The notes beneath the pieces were generated by a model. The model ran no database searches and had not been told where the DNA came from. It worked only from the letters and a program-made list of their open reading frames with translations. From an uncultured bacterium (lineage in GTDB: Bacteria > Oederibacteriota > Oederibacteriia > Oederibacteriales > Oederibacteriaceae): DNA of 64,000 nucleotides. The translations under genes were made by a program, and so were the position numbers. The stretch spans positions 2,048,001-2,112,000 of the forward strand of contig OZ218778.1 of assembly GCA_965112635.1 (NCBI GenBank), read 5' to 3'. Below, piece after piece: positions 7,295-41,191 of this stretch. Numbering within the stretch: position 1 is the stretch's first letter; each line of letters begins with the position of its first letter.

Positions 7295-7591
7295 ATGGCG
7301 ATGGTGAATTGTACCAAGTGCGGAAAATTATTTCTCCAAGCGGGGGACAAGCCCATTTGTCTCGAATGTTTGTCTCTCGCGGCCAAAGATTATAAAAAGG
7401 TTCATAGTTTTCTAAAACAACATCCGGGAGCCAGGGTGGATGAGGTGAGCGAGAAAACAGGCATCAGCGAAACAATGATCCTGGATTTTTTAAGGGAAGG
7501 CAGGCTTTCTTTGCGGGTAAGCAAGAGTTCCGTGTGCCAGTCATGCGGGGTGCCGATCGATAAAGGAAGTTATTGCGATAAGTGTTCCTAA
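7295..7591 (+). CDS. YvyF-like flagellar operon Zn-finger protein
   Basis: NCTKCGKLF..CLEC, central HTH-like EVSEKTGI..FLREGRL, terminal CQSCG..YCDKC. Confidence 0.8.
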   Translation: MAMVNCTKCGKLFLQAGDKPICLECLSLAAKDYKKVHSFLKQHPGARVDEVSEKTGISETMILDFLREGRLSLRVSKSSVCQSCGVPIDKGSYCDKCS

Positions 7592-7612
7592 TAAATTACT
7601 GGGGAAGATACA

Positions 7613-8128
7613 ATGCAAAACAAATTACTTAAAGACCTTTGGAGCGTATTGCAGGAGGAAATAAACGTTTATAAGGAGCTCTACAAGCTTTCCGAAGAGG
7701 AGAACCGCTTGTTGGTCAACAACGACCTGGAAGCTTTCCAAAAAGTCGTGCAAAAACAGGAGAAGCTGATTTTGGAGATCCATACGATGGACAACGTGAG
7801 GCAAAAAGTGGCTTCGACCATGACCAAAGAACTAGGGGATTCATCCAAGGCGGCCAACATCCCCGACCTTTTTGACAGCTTGGAAGAAGGTGACAAAGCG
7901 AAATTAAAGCAGTTGCAAGGGCAAGTCGTCCAATTAAAAGAAAAGCTTGATGCGATCAACAAGACCAATGGCGTGCTGATATCCAATGCCCTCCAATATT
8001 TGAAGTTTTCCCACAGGATCTCAGGCGGCAAGCCGGAGAAAAATCCCCAGGGAGAGGTTTATAGCGATCTGAAGGAACCGAAAAAAAAGACACCACGCAA
8101 ATCTTCGACGATTGATACGAAGATCTGA
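7613..8128 (+). CDS. flgN: Export chaperone FlgN
   Basis: Helical protein with LDAINKTNGVLI motif, directly upstream of flgK. Confidence 0.82.
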   Translation: MQNKLLKDLWSVLQEEINVYKELYKLSEEENRLLVNNDLEAFQKVVQKQEKLILEIHTMDNVRQKVASTMTKELGDSSKAANIPDLFDSLEEGDKAKLKQLQGQVVQLKEKLDAINKTNGVLISNALQYLKFSHRISGGKPEKNPQGEVYSDLKEPKKKTPRKSSTIDTKI

Positions 8129-8146
8129 GAAAAGGAGGTCGTCACT

Positions 8147-10351
8147 ATGAATTTCAGCGGATTGGGTTTCAGTATCGCCAACAGCGCTTTTGGGGCCTTG
8201 TCACAAGCCCTGGATGTTTACGGAAATAATGTCGCCAATGCCAACACGCCGGGTTACAGCCAGGAGGTCGCAGACCTTTCCGAGGGGATACCGCTTGACG
8301 GGTCCGGCGTCGCAGCCGGGCAAATAGGGACAGGAGTCCGTCTGGTCAGTATTTCAAGAATGAGGGACGAGTATCTCGATCTGCAGACCTATTATCAAAA
8401 TATGATCCTGGGGCAGAACGAGTCTTTGAACGACGTTTATAACCAGTTGAAAGTGATATTCCCCGATGCGGTTTCCATGACCGCCACCGGTCTTTCCGCC
8501 GCGATGAGCCAATTTTTTACCGACTGGTCAGCTTTAGCCGCGGATCCCTCCAGCGGGACTTTGCGTTCCAATTTAATGAATGACGCAGTCAGCATGTCCT
8601 CTCTGTTCAATAGTACAGCCAAGCAGTTGGTTTCCGAGGTTACCACAGTAAATCAGCAAATTTCATCAGATATAAACCAGGTCAATAGCTATTTGACCCA
8701 AATTGCATCTCTGAATCAAAGTATTACGGTAGCCAGCGGTAATGGGCAGAATCCCAATCAATTGCTGGACCAGAGGAATCTCCTAATAACCAACCTTTCG
8801 GAGTTGATCAATTTTTCTACAGTTACGCTTTCCGACAATACCATTACTTTACAAATTAACGGTATCGCTTTGGTGCAGGGCGGAACTGCCAACCAATTAA
8901 GCGCCTGCGCCGATCCGAATAATCCGTCTTTTATTGATGTAGGATGGAGGCAGGGGTCGGCTAGTTCTACGCCGACCTATGATCTGACCAGCAAGATCAC
9001 CGGCGGGAAGATCGGGGGGCTCATCCAAAGCCGTACCAGCGTTTTGTTGCCTTTGCAGTCAGAACTAAACCAAATCGCGAGCAGTATGATAACCCAGGTC
9101 AACACTTATCATGAGGCCGGTTATAATACGACCGATGGGACAACCTATGGTATTGGGATAAATACTGAGATACCTTTTTTTGATGGAACCAATGCTCAGT
9201 CCATCTGCGTGAATCCAGCCATTCAGGATAACGTTTCTTTGATCGCGGCTAGCAAAGACCTCAATCCAGTTACCGGCGCTGTGGATGGCCAGAATGCAGA
9301 TCTTATTGCCGGGTTGCAAGATGTGCTTCTCAACAGCAATGAGCAGTCCGTGATCGCGATGAATTTTGGGAAGCCCGGCCGGATCGATCCGGCTATGCCT
9401 ATGAGTTGGGGGGTTACGACTGCGATCAATGGCGCAGGGACCAACCTCACCAATTTTTCTCTTGCTCCCAACCCCGCGGGAGGGACCCTTTCAGTGGACG
9501 GCGTTGCGGTGCCGTGGTTGGCCGGCCAATCTTTGAACACTATCATCAATAACATCAACCTTGCTTTGGGCGGCCAGGCGTTTGCCTGCTTTAATACCAC
9601 AACGCAAGAAGTCACTTTTACGGGCAGCCAGCAGGTAATCCTTCGCGATGTGTCAGGAAACTTGACCACAGTGTTCAGGGCGGCCTTGCAGCTCTACAGC
9701 GCCACTAATATCAACATTGAACCAGGGCCGAACCAGATGCGCGTGGACCCGGCCATGCCTATGAATATTAATCCATCTCCGGCCACGGACCCGGTGAATT
9801 TATTGGGTTATAATGAGATCAATTTCTTTGTCGCGCCCAGCCAGTTTGGGACGGTCAGTGTCAATAACAACCCCATCGCCTATACCGATGCCACACCTAT
9901 TAATACGATTGTCGGCGCTATCCAAGGTATCCCAGGATTCGGCACTTCCTTTTTTAATACTGCGACACAGCAGTTGGTTCTGCGCACATCGCCGGCACAG
10001 GGGATAAGCGTGGAAGATATTGGCGGAAACTTTAACGAGTTCATGCAAATGCCTCCGACAGGGGATTTCAGCGATGTTTATAACGACCTTATTTCCAAAG
10101 TCAGTGATGGGGCCACCGCTGTCACCAACAATCTTACGACAGCCAACGGGGCTTTGACCCAGATCCAGAACAACCAGGACAGCGTCGCCAAGGTGAATAT
10201 TGACCAGCAGGACGCGATCATTGACCAACTGGGCAAAACCGCTGAAGCGGTTTTACGTTATGAAGAGACCCTTAATGAATTGCTCAATGTCTTGATAAAC
10301 GGTATGGGGTCAAACAATAATAATAATCCATCTTCTTCCTCTCCAGCATAG
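8147..10351 (+). CDS. flgK: Hook-associated protein FlgK, enlarged, with duplicated insert domain
   Basis: NNVANANTPGYS, GQIGTGV..ISRMRDEYLD, NQLLDQRN, GGKIGGL; divergent C-terminus. Confidence 0.88.
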   Translation: MNFSGLGFSIANSAFGALSQALDVYGNNVANANTPGYSQEVADLSEGIPLDGSGVAAGQIGTGVRLVSISRMRDEYLDLQTYYQNMILGQNESLNDVYNQLKVIFPDAVSMTATGLSAAMSQFFTDWSALAADPSSGTLRSNLMNDAVSMSSLFNSTAKQLVSEVTTVNQQISSDINQVNSYLTQIASLNQSITVASGNGQNPNQLLDQRNLLITNLSELINFSTVTLSDNTITLQINGIALVQGGTANQLSACADPNNPSFIDVGWRQGSASSTPTYDLTSKITGGKIGGLIQSRTSVLLPLQSELNQIASSMITQVNTYHEAGYNTTDGTTYGIGINTEIPFFDGTNAQSICVNPAIQDNVSLIAASKDLNPVTGAVDGQNADLIAGLQDVLLNSNEQSVIAMNFGKPGRIDPAMPMSWGVTTAINGAGTNLTNFSLAPNPAGGTLSVDGVAVPWLAGQSLNTIINNINLALGGQAFACFNTTTQEVTFTGSQQVILRDVSGNLTTVFRAALQLYSATNINIEPGPNQMRVDPAMPMNINPSPATDPVNLLGYNEINFFVAPSQFGTVSVNNNPIAYTDATPINTIVGAIQGIPGFGTSFFNTATQQLVLRTSPAQGISVEDIGGNFNEFMQMPPTGDFSDVYNDLISKVSDGATAVTNNLTTANGALTQIQNNQDSVAKVNIDQQDAIIDQLGKTAEAVLRYEETLNELLNVLINGMGSNNNNNPSSSSPA

Positions 10352-10523
10352 GATAAGGCGTAAAGCAGGTTTTTCGTCCTTTTGAGGGGTTTTTTGTTGC
10401 CAGAAAAGAAAAAAGGACGCCCCACCAGGTGTCATATTTTATTCCTAGATTTAGGAACTTTTGTTTAAGTATTGCGTCTAATATATAATAGAAGTAAGGG
10501 AAAAGTTAGAGGAGGGGCGCGAG

Positions 10524-12338
10524 GTGAAAAATTTACTTAAAAAGCGTATTTTGGTCCTGGGGTTTGTTTTGACTTTTGGCTGGTCATCCTCTGTTTGGGC
10601 TGCGGATTGGCCGATTTTTCATTTTGACGGCAGTTCCGGTTTTACCACGGACAGTATTGGGGCGCAGAATCTGGAGAGGTGGAATCATCCTTGTCCCAAT
10701 GCACCCACTTCATGCGTAGTGATTAATGGTTTCACCTATTACACCACCCAAGCAGGAGTTTATAAACTGGACAGCACCGGAGCTCTATCCTCCACTTGGC
10801 CGATAAATCCGGTCAATCCTTCCAGTCTTTCCACAACCTACTACACGATGCCGGCTTACTGGAATAGCGTGATCTATGTCGGGGCCTGGGACCCTACCCA
10901 ATCCAGTAAGAACGGCGTTTATGCGATCAAAACTGCTGATGGCTCTGCGTATTGGACCAATCCGCCGACCTGTCCTGGTTACTGCAACTACAATACCTCC
11001 CAGATCAATACCTACGCGGCTCCCATAGTCGGAAATGCCGGAGCGGTGGAGGCTGTTTTTGTGGGGGATACTGGCGGTAATATTTACGCTTTTGACACGA
11101 CCAAAACAATCCCTACCGCTCTCTGGAGCCACAACCTGGGAACCATGGGACTTTATTCCACTCCGGCTTATTGGACAGATGGAACAGATGCCTGGGTCTA
11201 TTTTGCAATGGTTGCCAGTAACCCCATCAATAGCAAGATATACAAAGTTTTTGCGTCCAGCGGTTTTTGGTTTGGCCCGCCCTTCGGTGTTCATTCCAAT
11301 CCCTGGGCTTGGCCGGCGGTAGGGACCGTAGAAGGTTTTTATTCCTCGCCGGCTGTGGACAGCAGCGGCAATGTATATGTTGGATGCGATAACGATAATG
11401 TCTATTCTATATCTTTGACCGAGACGATGAATTGGACCTTTACGGCTGGGGATGTCGTAAGATCGAGCCCTGCAGTAGCCACGCTGGGCGGGACTCACTA
11501 TGTTTTTGTGGGTTCCAACGACGGCAATCTCTATGCGCTCAATGCGAATACTGGAGCGCAGATATGGAATTATCAGGTGGGAGTCCCTGGTTACGCCGCA
11601 TTGGGTGCTCCGGCAATCAGCCGGGATGGCCTGGTTTATTTTGGCAGCGGGAGTCTCTCGGCTAATATGTATATTTTTCAGGGCAATCCACTTCCATCCA
11701 CTACGCCTCAAGTGGTAGCCACGGTAGGCCCGTGGGGTGTTAACAGCATATTATCCCCAGCACTCAGCGATACAACCGCAGGCGGCGGATTTCCTGCCGC
11801 TTATGTTGCCGCGGATAAAATCTATTGCTTGGGACCGACCTATACTTTGACCCAGTCGGCTACGCCTACGGTGACTGGGACGCCCGGCCCGCCTAGCACT
11901 TCAACGCCAACTTTGACGCCCTTGACTCCGTTTAATACTCCCACTATTACCGTAACATTCACCTGCACTTTGACTCCCACAATTACCACGACGGCCACTG
12001 CCACTCAGACAACTACCATGACCCCCACCATCAGCCCCACTAGTACTCTTACCCTGACATTGACGCCGCCCCCGTATATCATCGTATATCCCAATCCGAT
12101 GAATTTCAGCCAATATAAAGGGGTTAAGATCATCGGAACGCCTATTCTTGGCGCCGATATTGCCATCTATACTATTTCAGGAGAAACAGTGAGAAAGGTT
12201 TCCAAAAATACAGCTTACCCATTTATTTGGGACGGTAATAATGACGACGGTGTACCTGTGGTCACGGGCCTTTATCTCTATATCATCAACACCGCTGACG
12301 GCAATAGCATCAAAGGCAAGTTAGCCATCATTCGTTAA
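10524..12338 (+). CDS. Secreted PQQ-like beta-propeller protein with Thr/Pro linker and T9SS-type (FlgD Ig-like) C-terminal sorting domain
   Basis: Signal peptide VWA-ADWP; repeats SSPAV/VFVGSNDGNLYALNANTG; T/P tract ~11838-12074; tail VYPNP..IYTISGETV..WDGNNDDG..TGLYLY..KLAIIR. Confidence 0.8.
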   Translation: MKNLLKKRILVLGFVLTFGWSSSVWAADWPIFHFDGSSGFTTDSIGAQNLERWNHPCPNAPTSCVVINGFTYYTTQAGVYKLDSTGALSSTWPINPVNPSSLSTTYYTMPAYWNSVIYVGAWDPTQSSKNGVYAIKTADGSAYWTNPPTCPGYCNYNTSQINTYAAPIVGNAGAVEAVFVGDTGGNIYAFDTTKTIPTALWSHNLGTMGLYSTPAYWTDGTDAWVYFAMVASNPINSKIYKVFASSGFWFGPPFGVHSNPWAWPAVGTVEGFYSSPAVDSSGNVYVGCDNDNVYSISLTETMNWTFTAGDVVRSSPAVATLGGTHYVFVGSNDGNLYALNANTGAQIWNYQVGVPGYAALGAPAISRDGLVYFGSGSLSANMYIFQGNPLPSTTPQVVATVGPWGVNSILSPALSDTTAGGGFPAAYVAADKIYCLGPTYTLTQSATPTVTGTPGPPSTSTPTLTPLTPFNTPTITVTFTCTLTPTITTTATATQTTTMTPTISPTSTLTLTLTPPPYIIVYPNPMNFSQYKGVKIIGTPILGADIAIYTISGETVRKVSKNTAYPFIWDGNNDDGVPVVTGLYLYIINTADGNSIKGKLAIIR

Positions 12339-12353
12339 CCTGGGGGAATCTGT

Positions 12354-13469
12354 TTGAAAATTTTATTGTGGCCGGCAACAATATCCCGTCCTAAGGCCGA
12401 GCCCCAAAACCATAGAGGTGTTTTAGTCGGCAGTGCCGCAATGAACCCAGCCACAATCCCCGATATCAAACCTTGTCCACGGTGGACATCACGACTGCTT
12501 CTGGGAATAGCAGTTTTATTGGTATTCCCGGCTTTAAACGCTCAGAAGGCCATGGCTCAAGAGTCTCGTGGGGGGACAACGGCCGCCAATTTTCTGAAGA
12601 TAGGTGTGGGGGCCAGGCCGCTGGGCATGGGCGGAGCCTACGTGGCTATTGCCGATGACTCGAGCAGCGCTTACTGGAACCCGGCGGGATTAGCCAATAT
12701 GGACGCTCAAGTCATCCAATTGGAGCACGCGGAATGGTATGAAGGCATACAATATGAATATTTTGTCGTTGCCCAGCCCGCAGAGTCCTTCGGCCTTCCT
12801 ATTTGGGGCGCTATGGCCTTCTCTTGGTATTATTTGCACATGGGTGATATCCAGCGGACCTTAGAAGACAATATGAGCGGCGACGTGGTCATTCCAGGCG
12901 GCTCCTATTCCGCGGCAGACAGTATTCTTGCCATTTCGTACGGGGGCCAGCTGACCAATTTCCAGGCTTTTGGCATTGGTCTGAAATTCCTGAATCAAAA
13001 GCTGGATTATCTAAATAATAGCGGGATGGCATTTGATTTTGGGATCCAAAGCGCGGCGCCATTAAAAAATTTAAAGATAGGCCTGACCCTGTCCAATATG
13101 GGCCAGGATTTTATGGGCAGCCCGTTACCCACTACATTTAAAATGGGTGTTAATTATAAACTTGCCGGGAGGGGATTCCCCGGCGAATGGAACAACGAGA
13201 TAGACGGGTTGCTGCCGCTGATCAATAGCGATCAAATACCCCAGGCCCTTTTTGGCTCGGAATATGCCATCAACATGAGCACTCAAAAATATTCGTTCCG
13301 GGTCGGGTATGACACGGGTAGAGAGATTGGAACTGCTTTTACAGGGCTTTCCCTTGGCCTAGGATACCTTATCCGATTGGGAAGGTTGGACCTGGGAATA
13401 GATTACGCCTATCTATTTCAGGGAGACTTTGGCGCGACCCACCACTTTACTCTCAATTTAACTTTTTAA
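12354..13469 (+). CDS. PorV/PorQ-family outer-membrane beta-barrel (start uncertain)
   Basis: FLKIGVGARPLGMGGAYVAIADDSSSAYWNPAGL motif; ends IDYAY..HHFTLNLTF. Confidence 0.85.
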   Translation: MKILLWPATISRPKAEPQNHRGVLVGSAAMNPATIPDIKPCPRWTSRLLLGIAVLLVFPALNAQKAMAQESRGGTTAANFLKIGVGARPLGMGGAYVAIADDSSSAYWNPAGLANMDAQVIQLEHAEWYEGIQYEYFVVAQPAESFGLPIWGAMAFSWYYLHMGDIQRTLEDNMSGDVVIPGGSYSAADSILAISYGGQLTNFQAFGIGLKFLNQKLDYLNNSGMAFDFGIQSAAPLKNLKIGLTLSNMGQDFMGSPLPTTFKMGVNYKLAGRGFPGEWNNEIDGLLPLINSDQIPQALFGSEYAINMSTQKYSFRVGYDTGREIGTAFTGLSLGLGYLIRLGRLDLGIDYAYLFQGDFGATHHFTLNLTF

Positions 13470-13527: not shown

Positions 13528-13606
13528 ATGGGTAAGATATTTCTTATGTTTTGGTTTCATGAAGGTTTTGTTAAGATGATTTTCGATTTTGCAGGGAGAA
13601 GATATT

Positions 13607-14056
13607 TTGAACCAAGAACTCATTACCCGCAGCGTTGAAAACCTTTATAATAACTTCCAAAAAGAAATTGTTTTGTATGAAGAAGTATTCCAACTCACTC
13701 AACAGGAACATAAAAGCATAGTCAACGGCGCCCTGGATGAAACGCTAAAATATGTTAATGAAAAGCAGGATATCCTCAATAAAATAGAACTTATTGAAGA
13801 GGAACAAAAGGATCTAAAGAAGATTTGGGTCCAATCGCGCTACAAAGTCACAGAGGAGATCAGGAAAAAAATAAGGGAAAGCCTGGCGGTATTAGGGAGA
13901 CTCCTGGAAGACTTGATTAATTTGGAAAAACAAAATGAAAGAACATTGTCAGATCAGATCGGAATGTTCAGCGTTTTAAAAAGTGACAATAAGATAGCCC
14001 CTAAAAATGCCGCGGATGCCTATAAAAAGAACGACGACTCGCCGATAAAAAGCTGA
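13607..14056 (+). CDS. Second FlgN/FliT-like helical chaperone
   Basis: All-helical; LYEEVFQLTQQEH..EKQDILNKIE, terminal AADAYKK; TTG start after GGGAG. Confidence 0.55.
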   Translation: MNQELITRSVENLYNNFQKEIVLYEEVFQLTQQEHKSIVNGALDETLKYVNEKQDILNKIELIEEEQKDLKKIWVQSRYKVTEEIRKKIRESLAVLGRLLEDLINLEKQNERTLSDQIGMFSVLKSDNKIAPKNAADAYKKNDDSPIKS

Positions 14057-14153: not shown

Positions 14154-14181
14154 TTGACACTTGTTGCCTGTCTGTTATAAT
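14154..14181 (+). promoter_or_regulatory. Strong sigma70 promoter of the flgB operon
   Basis: TTGACA-N16-TATAAT with extended TG. Confidence 0.8.
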
Positions 14182-14250
14182 TTGGCTCAAATCATTTTTT
14201 AGATGGTTTTTTCAGTTTTTTTATTAAAAATTCAGGGAAATGTGTGGAAA

Positions 14251-14670
14251 ATGGTTGAAAAAATATTTTCTGGTGAAGCATTAACGATCCTACGAAAAGC
14301 CTTGGATGCCGCTTCATTAAGACATCAGGTTTTGTCAGATAATATTGCCAATGTTAATACGCCTGGATTTAAGCGTTCGGATGTAGTATTTCAACAGGAA
14401 TTGAAAGCTGCACTTTCCGCCAACGAAGGGGTATTGCCTTTAAATACAACTGACCCTAAACATATTCAATTTCCAGAAGAAATTCAGCTTGATAAAGTTA
14501 GCCCGAAAATCATTCTGCAAAACGACACAATTTCCCGTAACGATCTCAATAATGTCGATATTGATACCGAAATGGCGAAGTTGGCAGAGAACACTATCTA
14601 TTATAATTCCCTGGCGCAAATGACTTCATTGAAACTGACGAGTTTAAGGTCTGTCCTCAACAACCAATAG
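14251..14670 (+). CDS. flgB: Proximal rod protein FlgB
   Basis: LSDNIANVNTPGFKRSDV, RNDLNNVDIDTEM. Confidence 0.95.
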   Translation: MVEKIFSGEALTILRKALDAASLRHQVLSDNIANVNTPGFKRSDVVFQQELKAALSANEGVLPLNTTDPKHIQFPEEIQLDKVSPKIILQNDTISRNDLNNVDIDTEMAKLAENTIYYNSLAQMTSLKLTSLRSVLNNQ

Positions 14671-14689
14671 CAATAGATGGAGGGGTTAA

Positions 14690-15136: not shown

Positions 15137-15179
15137 TTAATTTCAAAAAATGATTTTGATGTTCTAGGGAGGTAGTTCA

Positions 15180-15485: not shown

Positions 15486-15521
15486 TAAAATAAGCAATCC
15501 TTTAAGGTGCTTTCATAAAAA

Positions 15522-17231: not shown

Positions 17232-17240
17232 GAGACAGGA

Positions 17241-19146: not shown

Positions 19147-19148
19147 TC

Positions 19149-30867: not shown

Positions 30868-30877
30868 AGGTTTATGA

Positions 30878-31495: not shown

Positions 31496-31599
31496 CAGTA
31501 TTTATTAGTTTAGTAAATAATTTCTTGTGTTTTTTCCCTAAAAGCTTAAATTAGTATTACTTTATAAAGACCTAACTCGCCTACTGAGAAAGAAGAATA

Positions 31600-32361: not shown

Positions 32362-32376
32362 TTACAAGGGAATAAA

Positions 32377-32646: not shown

Positions 32647-32696
32647 CGCTTGCCAATAAATCAATTCGATTGTTTTGGTTGATAGGAGAGGATGTA

Positions 32697-33467: not shown

Positions 33468-33522
33468 CCAATTTAACTTATTGCAGTCGGTTAAATCAAA
33501 TCTGCATTGCAGGTGAAATCAA

Positions 33523-34656
33523 ATGGCTGATCCTGAAAGAACTGAACCGGCAACCCCTAGGCATAGGGAAGAAGTCAGAAAAAGAGGCCAGATTGCAAAA
33601 AGCGCCGAGGTCAATGCAGTTTTAGTATTAATCAGCGCTTTGGTTTATTTTAACATCGAAGGTAATGTTTTTTATGAACAAATAGCTTCTTTAATGAAAA
33701 AACATATTGGTCAAATTGCCAATGTTCAGATCTATCAGGATAATTTTGCAAATAATTTTCAGACGTTTATGGTCCATTTTGTTGTTTTGCTATTCCCCTT
33801 TTTGCTAATTGTTCTCCTGGCGGCGATATTTGCTAATGTAATTCAGTTTGGGTTTTTATTTTCCGTAACTCCTCTTACTCCCAAATGGGAGAATCTCAGT
33901 GCTGTAACAGGTTTCAAGAGGATATTTTCTTTAAGAACATTTGCTGAGCTGATAAAATCTTTATTGAAGATAGGAATTATTGTTGGCATAACTTTTGTTA
34001 CATTAAAAAAAGAAATCCCAACCATTTTATTGGCTGGAGGAACCGATAAGCAGGCATTCGCTTATTTTTTTGCATCGATCATTTTCAAGCTTTGTTTAAG
34101 GTTGTTATTGGCCCTACTTGTGATTGCTATATTAGATTTTATTTATCAAAAATGGCAATATGAGCAAAGTATTCGAATGACAAGGCAGGAAATTAGAGAC
34201 GAGATGAAGCAAACTGAGGGCGATCCTTATATAAAAAGCAGGATAAGATCTATTCAGCGGGAGATGGCGCGCAGAAGGATGATGGAAGATTTACCGAGCG
34301 CCGATGTTGTTATTACAAACCCAACCCATTTAGCTGTGGCACTAAGGTATAAAGATGACGAAAAGAAACACGGAGGCGCTCCAGTAGTGGTCGCCAAGGG
34401 TACTCGTTTAGTGGCCGAAAGGATTAAAATGGATGCTTTTAAATTTAGGATACCTGTGATAGAAAATAGAGTCCTTGCCAAATCGCTGTTTGACACAACA
34501 GAAATCGGGCAAAGAATCCCGGTTGATCTTTATAAAACGGTTGCTGAAATCATAGCGTTTATATACAGGCTGAGAGAACATGGGGATATGCATACTGTGA
34601 AATTAGAGGGGCCATCCTTGTTGATTAGTCCTTCGTTGTTACAAAAAGAGGTTTGA
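33523..34656 (+). CDS. flhB: FlhB
   Basis: RTEPATP, KQTEGDP, intact NPTH autocleavage site. Confidence 0.96.
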   Translation: MADPERTEPATPRHREEVRKRGQIAKSAEVNAVLVLISALVYFNIEGNVFYEQIASLMKKHIGQIANVQIYQDNFANNFQTFMVHFVVLLFPFLLIVLLAAIFANVIQFGFLFSVTPLTPKWENLSAVTGFKRIFSLRTFAELIKSLLKIGIIVGITFVTLKKEIPTILLAGGTDKQAFAYFFASIIFKLCLRLLLALLVIAILDFIYQKWQYEQSIRMTRQEIRDEMKQTEGDPYIKSRIRSIQREMARRRMMEDLPSADVVITNPTHLAVALRYKDDEKKHGGAPVVVAKGTRLVAERIKMDAFKFRIPVIENRVLAKSLFDTTEIGQRIPVDLYKTVAEIIAFIYRLREHGDMHTVKLEGPSLLISPSLLQKEV

Positions 34657-34660
34657 TGTT

Positions 34661-36763
34661 ATGCCAGGTGAAAATTTAGCTCTACCTTCTATGAACAATT
34701 GGACCAAATATAGCGATGTTATTTTGTCGATTGCTGTTGTTGTGGTGGTTGTGATGATGATAGTGCCTCTGCCGCCTATCATGTTGGATCTTTTGCTGAC
34801 TTTGAATATAACGGCGGCTCTAACTATTTTATTGGTCACGATGTATACGCTTGAGCCCCTTCAATTCTCCGTATTTCCTTCGCTTCTTTTAATCGCAACT
34901 ATTTTCAGATTGGCCCTAAATGTTTCTGCCACACGTCTTGTCCTTGCCAATGCCTACGCAGGCGAAGTCATTAAGATTTTCGGAAGTTTCGTGGTTGGTG
35001 GTGGCGGTGATATCACAGCCGTGGTGGTTGGTGCGGTCATATTCCTGATCATCGTAGTTATTCAATTTGTTGTTATCACCAGCGGTGCTCAGCGTGTGGC
35101 TGAGGTTGCTGCGCGTTTTACCTTAGATGCTATGCCTGGCAAACAAATGGCAATTGACGCGGATCTAAATGCGGGATTGATCACGGACGATGAGGCTAGG
35201 GCGAGACGCCGGGGTATTGAAAAGGAGGCAGATTTTTATGGGGCCATGGATGGCGCGAGTAAATTCGTTCGTGGAGACGCCATCGCGGCAATTATTATTA
35301 CCATTATTAATATTATTGCCGGTCTGGCCATCGGTGTAACCTTAAAGGGTTTCGCGCCCAGTGTGGCTGTATTGACCTACACTATCCTGACAATTGGCGA
35401 AGGCCTGGTGACTCAGATTCCCGCCCTTTTGCTTTCCACAGCCACCGGTTTGATTGTCACAAGAGCGGCTTCTGAGTCCAATCTTGGGCAAGACCTTTCC
35501 AGGCAAATCATTCATCAGCCTAGGGTTTTCTATGTTGTTGCAGCGGTATTATTTGTCTTTGGTCTTATTTTTCCATCGTGGATCAAAGTGCCTTTTATTA
35601 TGATCGCAATTTTATGTGCCATTGGAGCATATCTTATGTCCAAAGCTTATAGCCAAGAAATTGTTTTAAAAGAGTCCAAGGCAAAAGAGCAAAAGGAGGC
35701 TGTTAAAACTCCAGAAGACATGGTTCCGTTGTTACAAGTGGATCCTTTAGAGATCGAGCTCGGATACGCGCTTATTCCTTTAGTTGAAGTGTCTCAAGGG
35801 GGCGATTTGTTAGATCGGATCACAAATATTAGAAAACAAATTGCGTTAGATTTGGGGCTGGTAGTCCCACCCATACGGGTGAGGGATAATGTCCAATTAA
35901 AGCCTACCTATTATCTTATCAAAATAAAAGGCGCTGAAGTTGCAAAGGGCGAAATCGTTTTGGGACATTATCTTGCCATTAACTCTGGCGCTGTTACTGA
36001 GAATATTTCTGGCATACCGACCAAAGAGCCGACCTTCGGTCTTCCTGCCCAATGGATCACAGAAGCTGAAAAAGAAAAGGCAGAACTTGCCGGCTATACT
36101 GTTGTCGACGCCACAGCAGTTATTGCCACACATCTTACAGAGGTAATCAGGTTCAATGCAGATTTATTATTAGGGCGCCAAGAAGTTCAAAAACTGATCG
36201 ATCATGTGAAACGGACAAATCCAGCAGTAGTAGAAGAGTTGACGCCTTCTTTGATGATGATAGGAGAGATCCAAAAGGTTTTAAAAAATTTATTAAAGGA
36301 GAAAGTTTCCATCAGAGATTTGGTGACTATTTTCGAAGCATTAGCCGACCAGGCCAGGAATACCAAGGATTTAGAAACATTAACGGAATATGCGCGGCAG
36401 GCATGCAATCGTTCTATCACAAAACAGTACCTCAATGAGGAGGGTAAATTGCCTGCGTTGACCCTTGATCCAAAACTAGAACAAATCATCCAGGAAAGTA
36501 TACAACAAACCGAGAGAGGTTATGTGCTGGCTATCGAACCAAAAGTCGGGAGGCAGATCTTCAGTAGTCTAGCCAGAGAAATTGAAAGGATTGCCAGGGA
36601 AGGTTTTTTGCCTGTATTATTGTGTGCTCCTGTTATTAGACCCTTTTTGAAAAGATTTGTTGAAAAAATATTGCCCAATCTAGTTATTTTATCGTTTAAT
36701 GATATATCTTCTAATGTCGAAGTCCAATCCTTGGGAATTGTAGGTATTCCAAATGAAAATTAA
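34661..36763 (+). CDS. flhA: FlhA
   Basis: RVAEVAARFTLDAMPGKQMAIDADL, FYGAMDGASKFV. Confidence 0.97.
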   Translation: MPGENLALPSMNNWTKYSDVILSIAVVVVVVMMIVPLPPIMLDLLLTLNITAALTILLVTMYTLEPLQFSVFPSLLLIATIFRLALNVSATRLVLANAYAGEVIKIFGSFVVGGGGDITAVVVGAVIFLIIVVIQFVVITSGAQRVAEVAARFTLDAMPGKQMAIDADLNAGLITDDEARARRRGIEKEADFYGAMDGASKFVRGDAIAAIIITIINIIAGLAIGVTLKGFAPSVAVLTYTILTIGEGLVTQIPALLLSTATGLIVTRAASESNLGQDLSRQIIHQPRVFYVVAAVLFVFGLIFPSWIKVPFIMIAILCAIGAYLMSKAYSQEIVLKESKAKEQKEAVKTPEDMVPLLQVDPLEIELGYALIPLVEVSQGGDLLDRITNIRKQIALDLGLVVPPIRVRDNVQLKPTYYLIKIKGAEVAKGEIVLGHYLAINSGAVTENISGIPTKEPTFGLPAQWITEAEKEKAELAGYTVVDATAVIATHLTEVIRFNADLLLGRQEVQKLIDHVKRTNPAVVEELTPSLMMIGEIQKVLKNLLKEKVSIRDLVTIFEALADQARNTKDLETLTEYARQACNRSITKQYLNEEGKLPALTLDPKLEQIIQESIQQTERGYVLAIEPKVGRQIFSSLAREIERIAREGFLPVLLCAPVIRPFLKRFVEKILPNLVILSFNDISSNVEVQSLGIVGIPNEN

Positions 36764-37943
36764 AAGATTTACCGGCAATTCAATTCAGGAGGTTTTTGCC
36801 AAGGTTAAGATGGAAGTCGGCCCAGATGCAGTCATTTTAAACAATAGGCAAGTCAGGGAAGGTGGTATTTTTGGTCTTTTTAGCAAAAAGATCGTTGAGG
36901 TTACTGTTGATCTGGGTGTGGAAAAAAAGAAGGAAACTCCAGGAAGATTTGCTTTTTTCCCTTCGATAAAAAAAGTGTTTGGAAAGAAGGATGTTAACGT
37001 CTCGTCGCAGAAGGAGGATTTGAACCCCAAGTCTTCCAATGCTCTTGGAAATCCTCCTTCATGGCAAACCCCTATTTTACAAAGTGAATTGAATGAGATG
37101 AAAGTAATTTTGCGTCCTAAATTAAAAATCAAAGGCCATGAAGAAAATACCAATTTATCGTTACCCTTCCAGAAGATGTTCCAATCTCTTTTACATCGCG
37201 GAGTCCATGAAGATATAGCTAAATCGTTATTAAGGCAACTCGAAGCAGAATCCCCCCAATTTTTTTCAGATTCTCAATTGCAGGCTCAGAAAGCTTTTAG
37301 AGAATGGCTGATTCCTTATATAAAAACTTCAGGACCCATAAAAGTTGTTTCCGGAAAGAGTAAAATTGTCGCAGTGATAGGGCCAACCGGAGTGGGTAAA
37401 ACAACAACGCTAGCCAAGTTAGCCGCTCATTACTCTTTAAAAGAAAACCGGAAGATAGCGTTAGTTACTTTAGACACCTATAGAATTGCAGCCGTAGAGC
37501 AGCTAAGAACCTATGCAAAAATCTTAGATGTTGGCCTTGGTGTAGCTACGAAGCCACAAGAGCTGAGCATTATATTTAATAATTTTAAAGATAGAGATTT
37601 AATTCTTATGGATACAGCTGGAATGAGTCCTTACGGCTCTCGCCAACTGAAAGATTTGCAGGAGTTGTTCAGGGGTTGGAATGTCGAAATATATTTATTA
37701 ATTTCGGCAATAACAAATTTTAGCGATATGAAAACCATATATGATCATTTTTCTGTTCTCCCATTGAAAAGGGTAATCATTACAAAAGTTGACGAAACTA
37801 AAAACCACGGAGTTTTGCTTAATGCTGCAATCCAATTTCCCATCCCCATTTCCTATCTTACTATTGGCCAAAATGTTCCTCAGGATATAGAAATTGCTGA
37901 TCCAAGTCGAATAGCAAGATATATCATTGATAATCGCCCATAA
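36753..37943 (+). CDS. flhF: SRP-type GTPase FlhF
   Basis: GPTGVGKTTT, DTYRIAAVEQL, DTAG, TKVDE, GQNVPQD. Confidence 0.94.
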   Translation: MKIKRFTGNSIQEVFAKVKMEVGPDAVILNNRQVREGGIFGLFSKKIVEVTVDLGVEKKKETPGRFAFFPSIKKVFGKKDVNVSSQKEDLNPKSSNALGNPPSWQTPILQSELNEMKVILRPKLKIKGHEENTNLSLPFQKMFQSLLHRGVHEDIAKSLLRQLEAESPQFFSDSQLQAQKAFREWLIPYIKTSGPIKVVSGKSKIVAVIGPTGVGKTTTLAKLAAHYSLKENRKIALVTLDTYRIAAVEQLRTYAKILDVGLGVATKPQELSIIFNNFKDRDLILMDTAGMSPYGSRQLKDLQELFRGWNVEIYLLISAITNFSDMKTIYDHFSVLPLKRVIITKVDETKNHGVLLNAAIQFPIPISYLTIGQNVPQDIEIADPSRIARYIIDNRP

Positions 37944-38070
37944 TAGACTCAACCCAATCTCAGGTGCCGCGTTGTACTGACAAAAAAATAAGACCTTTGT
38001 ATTTTTAGATGTACTCAAAATGATTTTCAATCCGAATTAATTATATTAAGAGATTTTGCTGAGGGAAAAT

Positions 38071-38514
38071 ATGAGCAATAAGTCTGTCCAAAAGATGCTT
38101 TTGTTGAAAGTGGGCATATATAGCGGAACAATTTCGGGCGCCTTGGTTGGATTAGCCTTTCTAGTTAATGGAAAAGATTTGAAGTACTTGCCGTTATGGT
38201 TGATTGTTTCTTTGTTATTTTTTGGTTTGTTAGGTTATCTATTCATAATAGCAATTGATGAATTTTGTGTTGATTTAGGGGTAAACCCAAGGGATTTTAT
38301 TTCAAAACAAAACAAGGATCAAGTTAAAAAAAATATCAATTATAACGATAACAAATATGCCGGAGTGCCTGTTGAAGGAATAGGCATAAATAATGGTGAG
38401 ACCTTTACAAAGCAAAAGCAAAACATTATTGGCTCAGAAAAACCCCAAGATGACATTAAACCATTTGATTTTGCTGAAATTACGGCAAGAAATGATAGCG
38501 GCTCGGAGGTTTGA
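38071..38514 (+). CDS. Hypothetical two-TM membrane protein
   Basis: Two hydrophobic helices then a polar tail; SD GAGGG. Confidence 0.6.
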   Translation: MSNKSVQKMLLLKVGIYSGTISGALVGLAFLVNGKDLKYLPLWLIVSLLFFGLLGYLFIIAIDEFCVDLGVNPRDFISKQNKDQVKKNINYNDNKYAGVPVEGIGINNGETFTKQKQNIIGSEKPQDDIKPFDFAEITARNDSGSEV

Positions 38515-38600: not shown

Positions 38601-40085
38601 ATGCTTGTGGAAAATAAACCTAGTATACCCGCCAACAATACCGACAGCCAGCAGAGACCCAAAGGCAAAATAGATTCACAAGTGTTTATTCAAGTTTCCA
38701 AAGATGAAAGTTCGGCTACCATTACAGTAATACCTCCTCAGCCGGGTGGAAAGTTAGTCGCTGAAGAGGATATTCGTTTGGCTCTAGCTACTGCGGGTGT
38801 TGTTTATGGAGTCAAGGAGGAAACCGTTGCGAATATTATTGCAAATCCCCCCAAAGATGATGTTCTTGAAACAGTCATTGCGACTGGAGAAAAGGGGGAG
38901 CCAGGGGTTGACGCTTCGATAGAATTTTTTATCGATATAAACAAGAAAGAAAAAGAGCTGAAGCCTGAAGAATTAGAAGACGGACGCATTGACTATTACA
39001 ATATCAGTTCGATCCAAAATGTAACCAAGGGGAAGCAGTTAGCCAGGAAGATCCCGGCTACCCCAGGAAAGCCTGGAAAGTCCGTCACCGGTAAAGAAAC
39101 ACCTCCTGTGCCCGGTAAAGATATTTCTGTTGTTGTGAGCAAGGGTGTTGAAAAATCGCCAGATGATGAGAATTTGTTCTTAGCGGCAATCGATGGCCAA
39201 GTCGCCTATAACGACAAGAAGTTGCAGGTTCTCTCCATCTATGAAGTAAAGGGTGATGTAGATTTTTCCATTGGCAATATTGATTTTGTAGGGAGCGTCA
39301 TTGTTCATGGAAATGTGAAGGATGATTTTAAAATTCAGGCGGGCGGTGATATTTTAGTTGACGGAGTCGTGGAGGGAGCGCAGGTCATTAGTAGCGGCAA
39401 GGTCACTTTAAAGGGTGGAGTGTTAGGTCACGACCATGCCATTATTAAAGCCAAGGGAGATATTGTTGCAAAATATTTGCGTAATTGCACCGCTGAGACA
39501 GAAAAAAATATCGTAGTCAATGAAGCCATCATGCATAGTAAAGTAACGGCTGGTGAGAAGATCGTTGTTTCCGGGAAAAAGGGGCTGATTGTGGGAGGGT
39601 TAACCATCGCTGGATCCGAAATCACAGCGAAAGTTTACGGCTCCAACTTCGCAACTTTAACTGAGCTTGAGGTGGGGACTAAACCCCAGACCCGCGAGGA
39701 AGTCCTAGAGCTGACTGCAAAAATTCAACATACCGAACAGGAGTTGGATAAAATCAAAAAAGGCCTGGCCTTTTTAAAGGAGTTGGCTACAAAGACCCCA
39801 GGGGGGCTTCCTGCGCCCCGCAAAGAAATGATGGCCAAGCTAACTCGAAATCAGTTCAGTTTGATCGCTGAGCTCAAGCCCCTCCAGGAACAGTTGGTAA
39901 CACTGGAGAGAGAGGAAGAAAAGATCCGGCTTACTAAAAAAGGCCGGATAATAGTCATGGGAATGATGAATACCGGTGTAAAGATCACCATTCAAAAGGC
40001 TTACAGACAGGTCAATGAAGAGCTTAAATATTGCACAATTCTTGAGGATAACGGTGAGATCAAAATAGGTCCCTACAAGGGATAA
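38601..40085 (+). CDS. fapA: FapA / DUF342 family protein
   Basis: GRIDYYN..V.KG.QLA, VDFSIGNIDFVG beta-helix, GLIVGG. Confidence 0.88.
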   Translation: MLVENKPSIPANNTDSQQRPKGKIDSQVFIQVSKDESSATITVIPPQPGGKLVAEEDIRLALATAGVVYGVKEETVANIIANPPKDDVLETVIATGEKGEPGVDASIEFFIDINKKEKELKPEELEDGRIDYYNISSIQNVTKGKQLARKIPATPGKPGKSVTGKETPPVPGKDISVVVSKGVEKSPDDENLFLAAIDGQVAYNDKKLQVLSIYEVKGDVDFSIGNIDFVGSVIVHGNVKDDFKIQAGGDILVDGVVEGAQVISSGKVTLKGGVLGHDHAIIKAKGDIVAKYLRNCTAETEKNIVVNEAIMHSKVTAGEKIVVSGKKGLIVGGLTIAGSEITAKVYGSNFATLTELEVGTKPQTREEVLELTAKIQHTEQELDKIKKGLAFLKELATKTPGGLPAPRKEMMAKLTRNQFSLIAELKPLQEQLVTLEREEEKIRLTKKGRIIVMGMMNTGVKITIQKAYRQVNEELKYCTILEDNGEIKIGPYKG

Positions 40086-40094
40086 AGGATCTTT

Positions 40095-40427
40095 ATGGTT
40101 AGACCGATCGATATCCAGAATATTTATTTTAGAACCGCCGATCTAGAAAAAATGCAGCAGAACCAACAGCAACAGATGAGTAACCAGCAGGTGGGCCTAG
40201 GTTCTGAGTTCCAGAAAAGGGTCGTCCAAAGGCAGGCCCAGGTCCGGCAAACTAACCCTTCAGGCAAAATTGAAGCAACAGAAGAAAAAAACGCCAACCC
40301 CTCAAGACGGAAGAGAAGCCAGCCTTATCGCAGGAATAAATCATTAAAACAAAACAGTGAGTCTGGCAGCGAAAGCGATTCTGCGTCTCCTGATGCTCAA
40401 CAGAGCGGTTTCAATTCGCTAGCATAG
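40095..40427 (+). CDS. Hypothetical flagellar-cluster protein, Gln-rich
   Basis: N-terminal RPIDIQ motif, as recalled for the small gene following DUF342 in Clostridia-type clusters. Confidence 0.6.
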   Translation: MVRPIDIQNIYFRTADLEKMQQNQQQQMSNQQVGLGSEFQKRVVQRQAQVRQTNPSGKIEATEEKNANPSRRKRSQPYRRNKSLKQNSESGSESDSASPDAQQSGFNSLA

Positions 40428-40520
40428 TTAGGCGGGCCTAGGCGCTAGGGCTCAGGTTATTAGCGATGATTAGATTAGGAAAGCGCACGCATGGTTTAAA
40501 TACCTTGTGTACAATAAAAT

Positions 40521-40548
40521 AAGGAAGGGCAACCTTCCTTTTTTCTTT
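40521..40548 (+). terminator. Intrinsic terminator-like hairpin inside the cluster
   Basis: AAGGAAGG-GCAA-CCTTCCTT then TTTTCTTT, directly before the next SD. Confidence 0.65.
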
Positions 40549-40561
40549 AGGGAGAATAATT

Positions 40562-41191
40562 ATGTATTATATTTTTGTAGTCCTTCAAATCACTATAGAT
40601 TGTTGTTTCGTGGGTTTACTTCTGCATTATATCTATCGTCTGGTCAAGCCGTCTGGAAGCTCCATAATCTATAAGGAATTTTTGGAAATGCAAGATAACA
40701 TCACCGAGCTTACCTTAGAACTTAACAAAATTAGCCAGCTGACATCTGGTGATATTGAAAAAAAACTTGGGCAATTAAAAAAATTTGTTGAAGCGGCTGA
40801 CCGCAGAATTGAAAAAATAAAGAAAGCAGCTTCACAGGGTCATCTTACATTAGAGAAAAATGAGAAAACCCATAAACAAACGGTCAACACGCAGCCCCCT
40901 TCGGTCCCTCAGGCTGAGCCGTTGGGCAGTTCTAGCCAGAATAAATTCCAGACACCGGAGCCTGCCAAATGGGCTTCTCGCTCTGGTGCGACAGGGCAGA
41001 ACAAAGTTGATTTGCAGAAAATAACAGAAAAAATCAATCCTCCCAAACCCAAACCATTAAAAAAGAAAAAGTATTTAATGGTTACTGAGTTATTTGCCAA
41101 AGGGAAAAATGCCAAACAGATTTCTGAGCTCCTTAGTATGAACGAAGGGGAAGTGCAGCTCATTCTAAATTTAAATAACAAAAACCTTTAG
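40562..41191 (+). CDS. SwrB/DUF2802/DUF6115-like membrane-anchored protein
   Basis: N-terminal TM, coiled coil, C-terminal HTH-like GKNAKQISELLSMNEGEVQLILNL. Confidence 0.65.
   Translation: MYYIFVVLQITIDCCFVGLLLHYIYRLVKPSGSSIIYKEFLEMQDNITELTLELNKISQLTSGDIEKKLGQLKKFVEAADRRIEKIKKAASQGHLTLEKNEKTHKQTVNTQPPSVPQAEPLGSSSQNKFQTPEPAKWASRSGATGQNKVDLQKITEKINPPKPKPLKKKKYLMVTELFAKGKNAKQISELLSMNEGEVQLILNLNNKNL

Follow-up and report, generated by a model that had tools for sequence, protein, structure and literature searches.

Intact flagellar superclusters without filament genes in the phylum Oederibacteriota: evidence for a probably filament-less, stator-driven machine

The window analyzed here is a stretch of 64,000 nucleotides (OZ218778.1, positions 2,048,001–2,112,000 of the forward strand) from the assembly GCA_965112635.1 of an uncultured member of the Oederibacteriaceae, phylum Oederibacteriota. 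The genome to which it belongs, labeled G000 here, is a single contig of 2,876,006 bases (2.88 Mb) and is 96.9% complete. Positions 2484–44098 of the window hold an intact flagellar supercluster, entirely on the plus strand, that encodes the rod, L and P rings, MS and C rings, export gate, hook, FlgK, and stators. Its features are as follows.

2297..2324, +, flgF operon promoter, sigma-70 type (TTGACA-16-TATCAT, with TG preceding the -10 element)
2354..2415, +, leader RNA motif, copy 1 (R1), two-hairpin (69.9 bits)
2429..2459, +, terminator-like hairpin (13 pairs and a T run) between the RNA motif and the flgF start
2484..7273, +, flgF, flgG, flgA, flgH (L ring; Pfam, 173.7 bits), flgI (P ring; Pfam, 378 bits), and flgJ (rod-binding domain only)
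7295..7591, +, YvyF-like zinc-ribbon protein, 98 aa (TIGR03826, 94.5 bits)
7613..8128, +, flgN, hook-associated protein chaperone (Pfam FlgN, 74 bits)
8147..10351, +, long flgK, 734 aa (Pfam)
10524..13469, +, beta-propeller protein with a T9SS type-A tail (604 aa) and PorV/PorQ-family barrel (371 aa; PorV_fam, 138.5 bits, cut-off 90)
13589..14056, +, second, FlgN-like protein, 155 aa (Pfam FlgN, E = 1.7e-5)
14154..14181, +, consensus sigma-70 promoter before flgB (TTGACA-16-TATAAT, 12/12)
14203..20978, +, flgB, flgC, fliE, fliF, fliG, fliH, fliI, and fliJ (Pfam)
21127..21188, +, leader RNA motif, copy 2, after a TTGACA...TATAAA promoter and before fliK (72 bits)
21310..24527, +, fliK (778-aa ruler), flgD, and TIGR02530 protein (profile matches)
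24550..24602, +, leader RNA motif, weaker variant, immediately upstream of the revised flgE start (26.1 bits, E = 9.8e-5)
24634..26373, +, flgE, hook protein (Pfam and start revision)
26431..28833, +, flbD, motA, motB, and fliL, the stator set (Pfam, motifs)
28860..37943, +, fliM, fliY, fliO, fliP, fliQ, fliR, flhB, flhA, and flhF (Pfam, motifs)
38056..38514, +, membrane protein, 152 aa, the sole gene between flhF and fapA
38601..44098, +, fapA, two small genes of unknown function, FliK-like 865-aa protein, and a protein like the FlhB C-terminal domain (95 aa, no NPTH)

The cluster comprises about 40 genes across 42 kb with no internal stop, and all the structural genes gave complete, uninterrupted Pfam matches, which were full-length for the export gate, MS and C rings, rod, and hook. 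The start of flgE was moved from 24541 to 24634, and the ribosome-binding site AAAGGAGG lies upstream of the revised start. The N-terminal domain of fliI is in frame from about 19150, yet has no ATG, GTG, or TTG start. FlgK has normal N- and C-terminal axial regions and an insert of about 270–350 aa composed of two repeated units, and the YvyF-like protein lacks the basic tail seen in the f7, f8, and f13 relatives.

In Bacillus subtilis-type loci, the gene order is flgB-flgC-fliE-fliF-fliG-fliH-fliI-fliJ-fliK-flgD-flgE-flbD-motAB-fliL-fliM-fliY-fliOPQR-flhBA-flhF-(flhG)-(fliA)-fapA. The window shares this order, YvyF, the TIGR02530 protein, and FlbD with the fla/che superclusters of the Firmicutes/Spirochaete type; it differs from them in adding flgA, flgH, and flgI (a diderm feature) and in lacking cheY between fliY and fliO, as well as flgL, hag, fliD, fliS, fliW, and csrA. 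The first-pass annotation had proposed that the sigma-28, filament, and chemotaxis genes are missing from each of their syntenic slots, and every slot proved to be as it described. yvyF ends 21 bases before flgN (7613), so that the FlgM slot is vacant, and flgK is followed not by flgL but by the non-flagellar pair of beta-propeller and PorV/PorQ-family barrel, which occupies the would-be flgL position, and then by the FlgN-like gene, for which tblastn gave no match in the Type A regions of the six relatives compared. fliY (29893–30867) abuts fliO, and because it also does so in the clusters of the six relatives compared with the region by tblastn, cheY was never present there in this type of system. 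Only the 152-aa membrane protein separates flhF (ending at 37943) from fapA (38601).

Absence was assessed with homology searches, and for fliC, fliD, fliS, fliW, and csrA, reported missing from the window, it extends to the entire one-contig genome. Flagellin_N gave no match at E ≤ 0.01 and Flagellin_C none at E ≤ 1; the best FliD_C match was 15.1 bits (cut-off 25.4), the best FliS match 14 bits, and the best FliA match 114.3 bits (cut-off 189.6), so sigma-28 was not identified. CheW, MCPsignal, and FlgM also had no matches genome-wide, and CheA, FlgL, and FliW are likewise absent. When 35,536 stop-to-stop frames of at least 40 aa were searched by phmmer with queries from within the phylum (three flagellins, FlgL, FliD, FliS, FliW, CheW, MCP, CheX, and four FlgM), there were no matches at E ≤ 10, and CsrA had none in 62,716 frames of at least 25 aa. 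The genome-wide HMM check proposed earlier thus found no second locus with fliC, fliD, flgL, fliA, flgM, or che genes. G000 has stators, export gate and ATPase, rings, rod, a hook with its cap and length ruler, FlgN, and FlgK; it has no flagellin filament, FlgL junction, FliD cap, FliS, FliA/FlgM hierarchy, or CheA/CheW/MCP.

We refer to the flagellar system of the window as Type A and to a second, canonical flagellar cluster as Type B. The phylum survey covered 41 genomes, namely G000 and 40 relatives, the latter being multi-contig assemblies of 74–100% estimated completeness. FlhA was found in 29 of these genomes, FlgI in 28, FlgK in 25, Flagellin_N in 7, and FliD in 6. One of the seven Flagellin_N matches is a truncated FlgL remnant (G017), so true flagellin and FliD occur together in 6 of 41, and these six genomes carry Type B. 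The other 23 genomes with FlhA, 2.0–4.7 Mb in size and from at least 10 families, have Type A only; none of them encodes FlgL, flagellin, FliD, or FliS. Completeness reaches 95% or more in 14 of them, among which G014 and G020 comprise 5 contigs each and G005 comprises 20. In relatives, flgK is followed by fliK-flgD-flgE or by a housekeeping gene (Lnt, S6PP, SurE), never by flgL. In five of the 23 (G001, G007, G023, G027, and G038) the FlgK match is also missing, and since G001 and G007 lack FlgI as well, the Type A system is not uniform. In the FlhA tree, Type A formed one clade (22 rows, SH-aLRT 97) in which families grouped together, and Type B a separate clade (5 rows, 100). Both systems are present as separate clusters in G012 and G025; the fragmented assembly G021 also scores for both, its clusters not having been inspected. 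In a control clade, the relatives of a Zixibacteria genome, FlhA and flagellin were both present in 31 of 31 genomes, and flagellin was present in all five other named genomes with a similar FlhA. Judged by gene content, filament loss is therefore not private to G000, and most FlhA-bearing genomes of the phylum lack filament genes.

The first-pass annotation had treated the three tiers as one loss, which does not hold: FliA is kept in 16 of the 23 Type-A-only genomes and CheW in 16 of the 23. Because such relatives have no flagellin or FliD but retain FliA, CheW, FlgM, and FlhG, the tiers were lost as separate events. FlgM, FlhG, and FliA in their clusters sit exactly in the slots that are vacant in G000. 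The FlgM proteins are 96–136 aa long (Pfam E 9e-10 to 8e-5), and four of the five tested exceeded the 25-bit cut-off, with that of G005 at 23.2 bits; the flhF–fapA slot of G005 holds an FlhG/MinD-like gene (314 aa), a PilZ-like gene, a 106-aa ORF, and FliA (251 aa; 213 bits). On this comparison, FlgM, FliA, FlhG, and the chemotaxis genes are additional losses of G000 itself.

The stators, C ring, export gate, and L/P rings, described earlier as looking intact, also keep their functional motifs. The MotB Asp lies within the motif YADMITLL, the charged and EHPQ/MFVF motifs of MotA and FliG and the Walker A of FliI are kept, and the NPTH of FlhB is at residue 266. FliM retains the CheY-binding N-terminal peptide ISQEEMDALL although CheA, CheW, and MCP are absent. 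motA, motB, and fliL were kept in G000 and in all six relatives' clusters, with identities of 57–66% for MotA and 67–71% for FliG, whose torque region is kept. Retention of MotA, MotB, FliL, and FlbD with intact torque and proton-path motifs favors rotation. A non-flagellar type III injectisome (secretin, needle, translocon) was rejected: injectisome-specific families had no match in a scan of all window ORFs, and the cluster instead has FlgH, FlgI, FlgE, and MotAB.

The promoters before flgB and flgF are of the sigma-70 type, as first noted, and no sigma-28 motif occurs in the window. The flgF leader has an attenuator-type layout with a predicted terminator-type expression platform. Covariation supports the two-hairpin structure. 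Copies of the motif precede flgG/flgE in relatives and in Paenibacillus as well, and Paenibacillus and Bacillus loci share it. Rfam gave no match at E ≤ 1 for the window and no relevant match at E ≤ 10 for the 291-base leader. The RNA appears to be previously undescribed and points to an undescribed control layer of rod and hook genes.

We consider, with a probability of about 60%, that Type A is a complete, selectively maintained machine derived from the flagellum, conserved, stator-driven, and filament-less, in which the hook, with a long FlgK as its cap, is the outermost part. Its type III gate would follow the usual order in exporting rod, hook, and FlgK subunits, with the FliK/FlhB-NPTH switch retained, and MotA/MotB would turn the rotor, yielding a short rotating hook–FlgK stub on the cell surface rather than a swimming filament. 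Later losses in the G000 lineage would comprise the FlgM/sigma-28 checkpoint, FlhG, and every chemotaxis gene, and the rod and hook operons would be driven by sigma-70-type promoters, each with the conserved leader RNA, and with a terminator in that of flgF. With motor, rod, hook, and hook-tip protein complete but no genes for filament, cap, or adaptor, the machine is probably used for a task other than ordinary swimming; the candidates are surface interaction, stirring, movement over short distances, and secretion. Of the earlier suggestion of a filament-less rotary appendage or secretion device, the filament-less part is borne out by the genome-wide absence and phylum-wide conservation, and between rotation and secretion the retained stators and motor motifs favor the former. 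A fuller version, possible rather than probable as a whole, is a phylum-wide, stator-driven, hook-only flagellum with the FlgE hook and long FlgK as its working tip, a non-swimming or short-range role, the capacity to coexist with a canonical flagellum, and rod and hook genes under a leader RNA shared with Firmicutes. It draws on the long FliK rulers (778–1079 aa) and on the hook and FlgK operons found behind sigma-28 promoters in relatives. Canonical flagella reserve the sigma-28 tier for flagellin.

The main rival, which we regard as unlikely, is a swimming flagellum whose filament, adaptor, and cap proteins either have diverged from flagellin, FlgL, and FliD beyond recognition or bear no relation to them. 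Stators, FliL, FlbD, a C ring with FliY, the FliM peptide, and the FliK/FlhB switch, together with the FlgM, sigma-28 promoters, FliA, and chemotaxis genes of relatives, are what swimming needs, and G000 encodes both the second FlgN-like protein and an orphan 161-aa protein (Ser/Thr/Asn/Gln-rich, disordered, Cys-free) that shares its leader RNA with the rod and hook operons. However, the orphan was not found in the 40 relatives and so cannot be the filament of the phylum. A composition scan of 3,365 G000 ORFs returned only the orphan, FlgG, an unrelated 212-aa ORF, and one spurious frame; neither Pfam models, in-phylum flagellin, FlgL, and FliD queries, nor the G017 remnant found a match in G000. 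Five Type-A-only genomes contained 95 sigma-28 motif matches, and downstream of the 50 looked at were flgM-flgN-flgK, flgD-flgE, a FliK-like gene, yvyF, one serpin-like ORF, and several unannotated ORFs (e.g., 421, 249, and 239 aa), among which no filament candidate was recognized or recurred. CheW also occurs in 7 of the 12 genomes of the phylum without FlhA, and therefore does not track Type A.

A device for secretion or surface signals only, in which rotation has no role, a function proposed for the filament-less basal bodies of Buchnera, is less likely again. Buchnera aphidicola, a reduced endosymbiont, keeps basal body, export gate, and partial hook (flgD, flgE, flgK) without flagellin, structures thought to serve a non-motility role (PMC8109811); the export gate of G000 is also complete, and its disordered, Cys-free orphan shares the leader RNA. 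However, the same paper describes all Buchnera lineages as lacking motA and motB, and hook genes and fliI are being shed among them, whereas Type A keeps stators, FliL, the FliG torque region, full C ring, and L/P rings in genomes of 2.0–4.7 Mb across the phylum, some with a canonical flagellum too, and no conserved effector candidates were found in the clusters. Early decay of an ordinary locus after late-gene deletion, to which the cleanly deleted FlgM and FlhG-FliA slots of G000, the seemingly further reduced G001 and G007, and the FlgL remnant of G017 might point, is very improbable given the open frames, the same filament-less content in 23 genomes with an FlhA tree that follows families, and protein identities of only 23–71% between clusters, which indicate long divergence with reading frames maintained.

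The type III remnant of Lysobacter enzymogenes (PMC9927559) is likewise a case of a non-flagellated, free-living bacterium keeping some flagellar export genes in a diverged role, but it is much more degraded, without flgK, flgL, flgB, fliE, fliG, fliM, motA, and motB. The MAG of Candidatus Hatepunaea meridiana, phylum Electryoneota (PMC9324843), shows the same pattern as Type-A-only versus Type B genomes, in one remark on one MAG without analysis. Endosymbionts with shrinking genomes already provide examples of filament-less basal bodies, but these have lost the motor, and decay can reasonably account for them. Type A, found in no fewer than 23 genomes from 10 or more families and at times alongside a normal flagellum, retains an intact motor, hook, and hook-tip protein without the filament tier. 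What flagellar motors may do other than drive a propeller, a long-standing question, thereby becomes directly testable, as do the first evolutionary steps toward injectisome-like and other derived machines. The genomes supply a natural series: Type A together with Type B; Type A alone, with sigma-28 and chemotaxis retained; Type A alone, with both gone; and forms reduced still further.

A second line of inquiry is the leader RNA. GEMM/c-di-GMP-I riboswitches are structured leaders before flgB, flgC, flgG, and similar genes (PMC1950547), and the G000 motif likewise precedes flagellar genes; it differs in its two-hairpin architecture, and assignment to this class was rejected, no RF01051 match having been found. 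The control layer to which the motif points appears to extend to the bench-tractable Bacillus and Paenibacillus.

The first-pass annotation had reported that the window carries a flagellar supercluster without the sigma-28, filament, and chemotaxis tier. We searched the whole genome holding the window (G000; a single contig of 2,876,006 bases, estimated to be 96.9% complete) and the absence of the filament, FlgL, FliD, FliS, FliW, CsrA, FlgM, FliA, CheW, and MCP tier holds genome-wide, in the sense that these proteins were not found with the queries used. In the family search, Flagellin_N had no match at E ≤ 0.01, Flagellin_C had none at E ≤ 1, and CheW, the MCP signaling domain, and FlgM had none at all. 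The best scores were 15.1 bits for FliD_C (cut-off, 25.4), 14 bits for FliS, and 114.3 bits for FliA/WhiG (cut-off, 189.6). Queries from within the phylum were taken from the canonical cluster on contig 14 of a relative, G012 (three flagellins, FlgL, FliD, FliS, FliW, CheW, MCP, and CheX), and four FlgM queries came from relatives. None had a match at E ≤ 10 among the 35,536 stop-to-stop frames of ≥ 40 aa in G000, a search in which the FlgK query from within the phylum recovered the window FlgK at 1.6e-49. A CsrA query from the G012 cluster had no match in the 62,716 G000 frames of ≥ 25 aa. Because both kinds of search were empty, a second fliC/fliD/flgL/fliA/flgM/che locus, which the first-pass annotation had named as the refuting result, was not found in G000.

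On the plus strand of the window, between 2484 and 44098, the long ORFs all matched flagellar families over their full length in the family search, and no gene of the supercluster contained an internal stop.

Gene content of the window supercluster, in order
Block 1, plus strand: flgF, flgG, flgA, flgH, flgI, flgJ (rod-binding domain only), YvyF-like zinc-ribbon protein, flgN, flgK (734 aa)
Block 2, plus strand, three inserted genes: beta-propeller with T9SS type-A tail, PorV/PorQ-family barrel, FlgN-like protein
Block 3a, plus strand: flgB, flgC, fliE, fliF, fliG, fliH, fliI, fliJ, fliK, flgD, TIGR02530 protein, flgE
Block 3b, plus strand: flbD, motA, motB, fliL, fliM, fliY, fliO, fliP, fliQ, fliR, flhB, flhA, flhF
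Block 4, plus strand: 152-aa membrane protein, fapA, two small unknown genes, FliK-like 865-aa protein, FlhB C-terminal-domain-like protein

The G000 proteins retain the MotB aspartate (within YADMITLL), the charged regions of MotA and FliG, the EHPQ and MFVF motifs of FliG, NPTH at residue 266 of FlhB, the Walker A motif of FliI, and the N-terminal FliM peptide ISQEEMDALL, which binds CheY-P in other bacteria. The gene model of flgE was revised to start at 24634 instead of 24541. The N-terminal domain of fliI (window 19071-19359) is encoded in frame ahead of the first ATG, from about 19150 on, and no ATG, GTG, or TTG start was found for it; an ATC preceded by a GAGAGG box at about this position points to a non-canonical start codon.

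The survey of the phylum covered G000 and 40 relatives, all related at the phylum level only, with G000 alone in its own family and most of the genomes being incomplete assemblies; 31 genomes of a control clade and five other named genomes were added to these 41.

Genomes with a match among the 41 genomes of the phylum
FlhA: 29 of 41
FlgI: 28 of 41
FlgK: 25 of 41
CheW: 29 of 41
FliA (E ≤ 1e-40): 26 of 41
Flagellin_N: 7 of 41
FliD: 6 of 41

Two flagellar systems were distinguished. In five of the six FliD-positive genomes (G011, G012, G018, G021, G025, and G040), one contig carries the flagellins together with an FlgK that is short (471-489 aa) and an FlhA that scores lower (811-830 bits); this canonical cluster is referred to as Type B. 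In G012 it contains cheA, W, R, B, D, X, and Y, MCPs, fliS, fliD, three flagellins, fliW, csrA, flgL, flgK, flgN, the L/P rings, a sigma-54 activator, and fliA. In Type A, the system of the window, FlgK is long, its open frames spanning 587-824 aa and the 13 gene models constructed (G000 among them) 697-821 aa, and FlhA scores 845-910 bits. Both types are present in separate clusters in G012 and G025, and G021 scores for both, judged by scores only in a fragmented assembly. FlhA without flagellin was found in 23 genomes, 14 of which are ≥ 95% complete. As a control against assembly artefacts, FlhA and flagellin were both detected in all 31 genomes related to a named Zixibacteria genome, and also in all five other named genomes. 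In G001 and G007, FlhA was present with no FlgI or FlgK match, and these systems look further reduced.

The seventh Flagellin_N match (G017; 28-31 bits), the single weak one in a family with Type A, was rejected as a flagellin, because the frame (L214:142-1332, contig 141) is FlgL-like and N-terminally shortened. Its first ~35 residues (the N-terminal helix) are missing, it continues from an epimerase fragment, and it adjoins radical-SAM and glycosyltransferase genes. As a query it had no match in G000, and it is probably either left over from a junction gene that was lost or the product of chimeric assembly.

Among other genomes, FlhA matches came from many phyla (37-56% identity in a search of genome contigs), the FlgK look-up returned generic FlgK protein clusters only, and the FlgK query found no relative in metagenome contigs. 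We constructed an FlhA tree of 66 rows, namely G000, 26 full-length sequences of relatives, and 39 of 80 named loci picked to span phyla, with fragmentary pieces excluded. Type A FlhA formed one clade (22 rows; SH-aLRT 97), within which the families cluster together, and Type B FlhA formed another (5 rows; support 100); the named FCB-group sequences were placed outside both.

The gene order of the Type A clusters of six relatives is that of the window, with protein identities of 23-71% (FliG, 67-71%; FliI, 63-67%; FlhA, 54-58%; MotA, 57-66%). In 13 relatives the flgK region reads flgF-flgG-flgA-flgH-flgI-flgJ-(yvyF)-FlgM-flgN-long flgK, followed by fliK-flgD-TIGR02530-flgE or housekeeping genes (Lnt, S6PP, SurE), and in none by flgL. 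The earlier observations on two slots of the window were borne out: yvyF directly precedes flgN, with 21 bases in G000 where the relatives hold FlgM, and only the 152-aa membrane protein separates flhF from fapA, where G005 has a MinD/FlhG-like ATPase, a PilZ-like protein, a 106-aa ORF, and FliA (213 bits; 199.6 bits in G037). The absence of cheY between fliY and fliO is common to all clusters compared. FliA was detected in 16 of the 23 Type-A-only genomes (not found in G000, G003, G007, G010, G023, G027, and G029), as was CheW (not found in G000, G006, G010, G013, G023, G027, and G029). CheW does not track the Type A system, because it also occurs in 7 of the 12 genomes without FlhA.

TAAAG-N16/17-CGATAW promoters precede flgM in relatives of four families (f6, f7, f10, and f12), and families f8 and f13 have a variant -10 there. 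In the latter (loci L116, L117, L119, and L127 of G014, G020, G026, and G032), the -35-like CTMAAGTTTT is kept and the -10 is CGTTAG versus CGATAT, possibly reflecting a shift in sigma-28 specificity. When five genomes were scanned for the sigma-28 motif, 95 matches were obtained versus 44 for the reversed pattern (24/12, 11/9, 18/6, 18/7, and 24/10 per genome). Among the 50 matches inspected, the recurring intergenic ones lie before flgM-flgN-flgK; before flgD in G006 or within the 3' end of fliJ in G005 and G036; and before the FliK-like gene and a separate yvyF in the latter two genomes. Two matches in G031 agree with these locations, judged by the distance from flhA only. From these motif matches, the hook and FlgK operons of the relatives appear to be sigma-28 "late" genes. 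In the G000 window no sigma-28 motif was found, and sigma-70-type promoters precede flgF, flgB, and fliK. At window 40095-43802, the FliK-like 865-aa protein (weak Flg_hook domain) is followed by the FlhB C-terminal-like protein, which lacks NPTH; in relatives this pair has its own sigma-28 promoter upstream, as a motif match.

The flgF leader of G000 contains, in this order, two hairpins, a 13-pair terminator, and the ribosome-binding site. Hairpin 1 has a GGA bulge and the loop of hairpin 2 is GAnYGAnYGA.

Copies of the leader RNA motif in G000
Window 2354-2415: leader RNA motif, in the flgF leader
Window 21127-21188: leader RNA motif, before fliK
Window 24550-24602: weaker variant, directly before flgE
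Genome 1010345-1010409 (L200:2346-2410): further copy, before an orphan 161-aa protein gene

An Rfam search of the window was empty at E ≤ 1, and that of the flgF leader alone yielded nothing relevant at E ≤ 10, so a c-di-GMP-I riboswitch was rejected for this leader; nor can the RNA be a CsrA site in G000, because CsrA was not found there. In metagenome contigs, an exact-pattern scan matched 10 times, in each case either in the flgF-flgG interval or a short distance upstream of flgG. With nhmmer, diverged copies were found between flgF and flgG in four relatives (G006, G014, G020, and G037); Paenibacillus and Bacillus loci also gave copies, at roughly 8 kb upstream of flhA. Across 18 sequences, a manually written structure was 92.7% paired and 14 of its 17 pairs had compensatory changes; the first hairpin is invariant in the 10 metagenome rows because the search pattern fixed it. 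None of 500 shuffles reached any of the measures, and slid controls were ≤ 51% paired. A covariance model detected the motif in 24 of the 41 phylum genomes at E ≤ 0.01 (three of these matches being short and partial), with second copies directly upstream of flgE, and in none of the three Type-B-only genomes. In the literature outside subscription journals, GEMM was the only RNA found upstream of flagellar genes (PMC1950547).

We consider, with a probability of roughly 60%, that Type A encodes a rotating, filament-less hook-FlgK organelle, a reading that depends on sequence comparison. This figure and the standing of the alternatives were assigned from the evidence on filament candidates and the evidence against a Buchnera-type relic and against decay. 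A hidden filament is unlikely: no candidate emerged from the homology searches, from the composition scan of G000, or from the sigma-28 promoter survey, in which 50 of the 95 matches in the five genomes were inspected and several of the downstream ORFs were without annotation. A non-homologous filament could escape all three. A 212-aa Gln/Thr-rich ORF (genome 665999-666637) had no family and no flagellar neighbors. The orphan 161-aa protein (genome 1010558-1011043; L200:2559-3044) is encoded downstream of the same leader RNA and a terminator, bordering a transposase/integrase region. It is Ser/Thr/Asn/Gln-rich (67% Ser/Thr/Ala/Asn/Gly/Gln), Cys-free, and carries a His7 run, with no Pfam family and no relative in the 40 phylum genomes; it is possibly a lineage-specific export substrate.

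A system serving secretion only seems improbable. Reduced flagellar sets are described in reports on Buchnera (PMC8109811) and Lysobacter (PMC9927559). According to the former, motA and motB are gone from every Buchnera lineage, whereas Type A retains its stators, which argues against a secretion-only relic of the Buchnera type. Decay is very improbable, given that the frames have stayed open and the key motifs intact over the long term, that Type A is inherited by clade, and that it coexists with a canonical flagellum.

Two further loci of G000 were recorded. Genome 1788412-1792053 (L212:10419-14057) encodes a pair of large outer-membrane proteins that are PorV/FadL-like and carry FlgD-Ig and fn3 domains, between ahcY and ribD and 258 kb away from the flagellar cluster; relatives from four or more families have this pair directly upstream of flgF, and it possibly serves the Type A motor as an outer-membrane accessory. 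G000 has a second flagellum-derived rotor at genome 1811106-1814355 (L213:13107-16356), where a 554-aa fusion protein, FliF(C-terminal)-FliG(M,C), is accompanied by a separate MotA/MotB pair.
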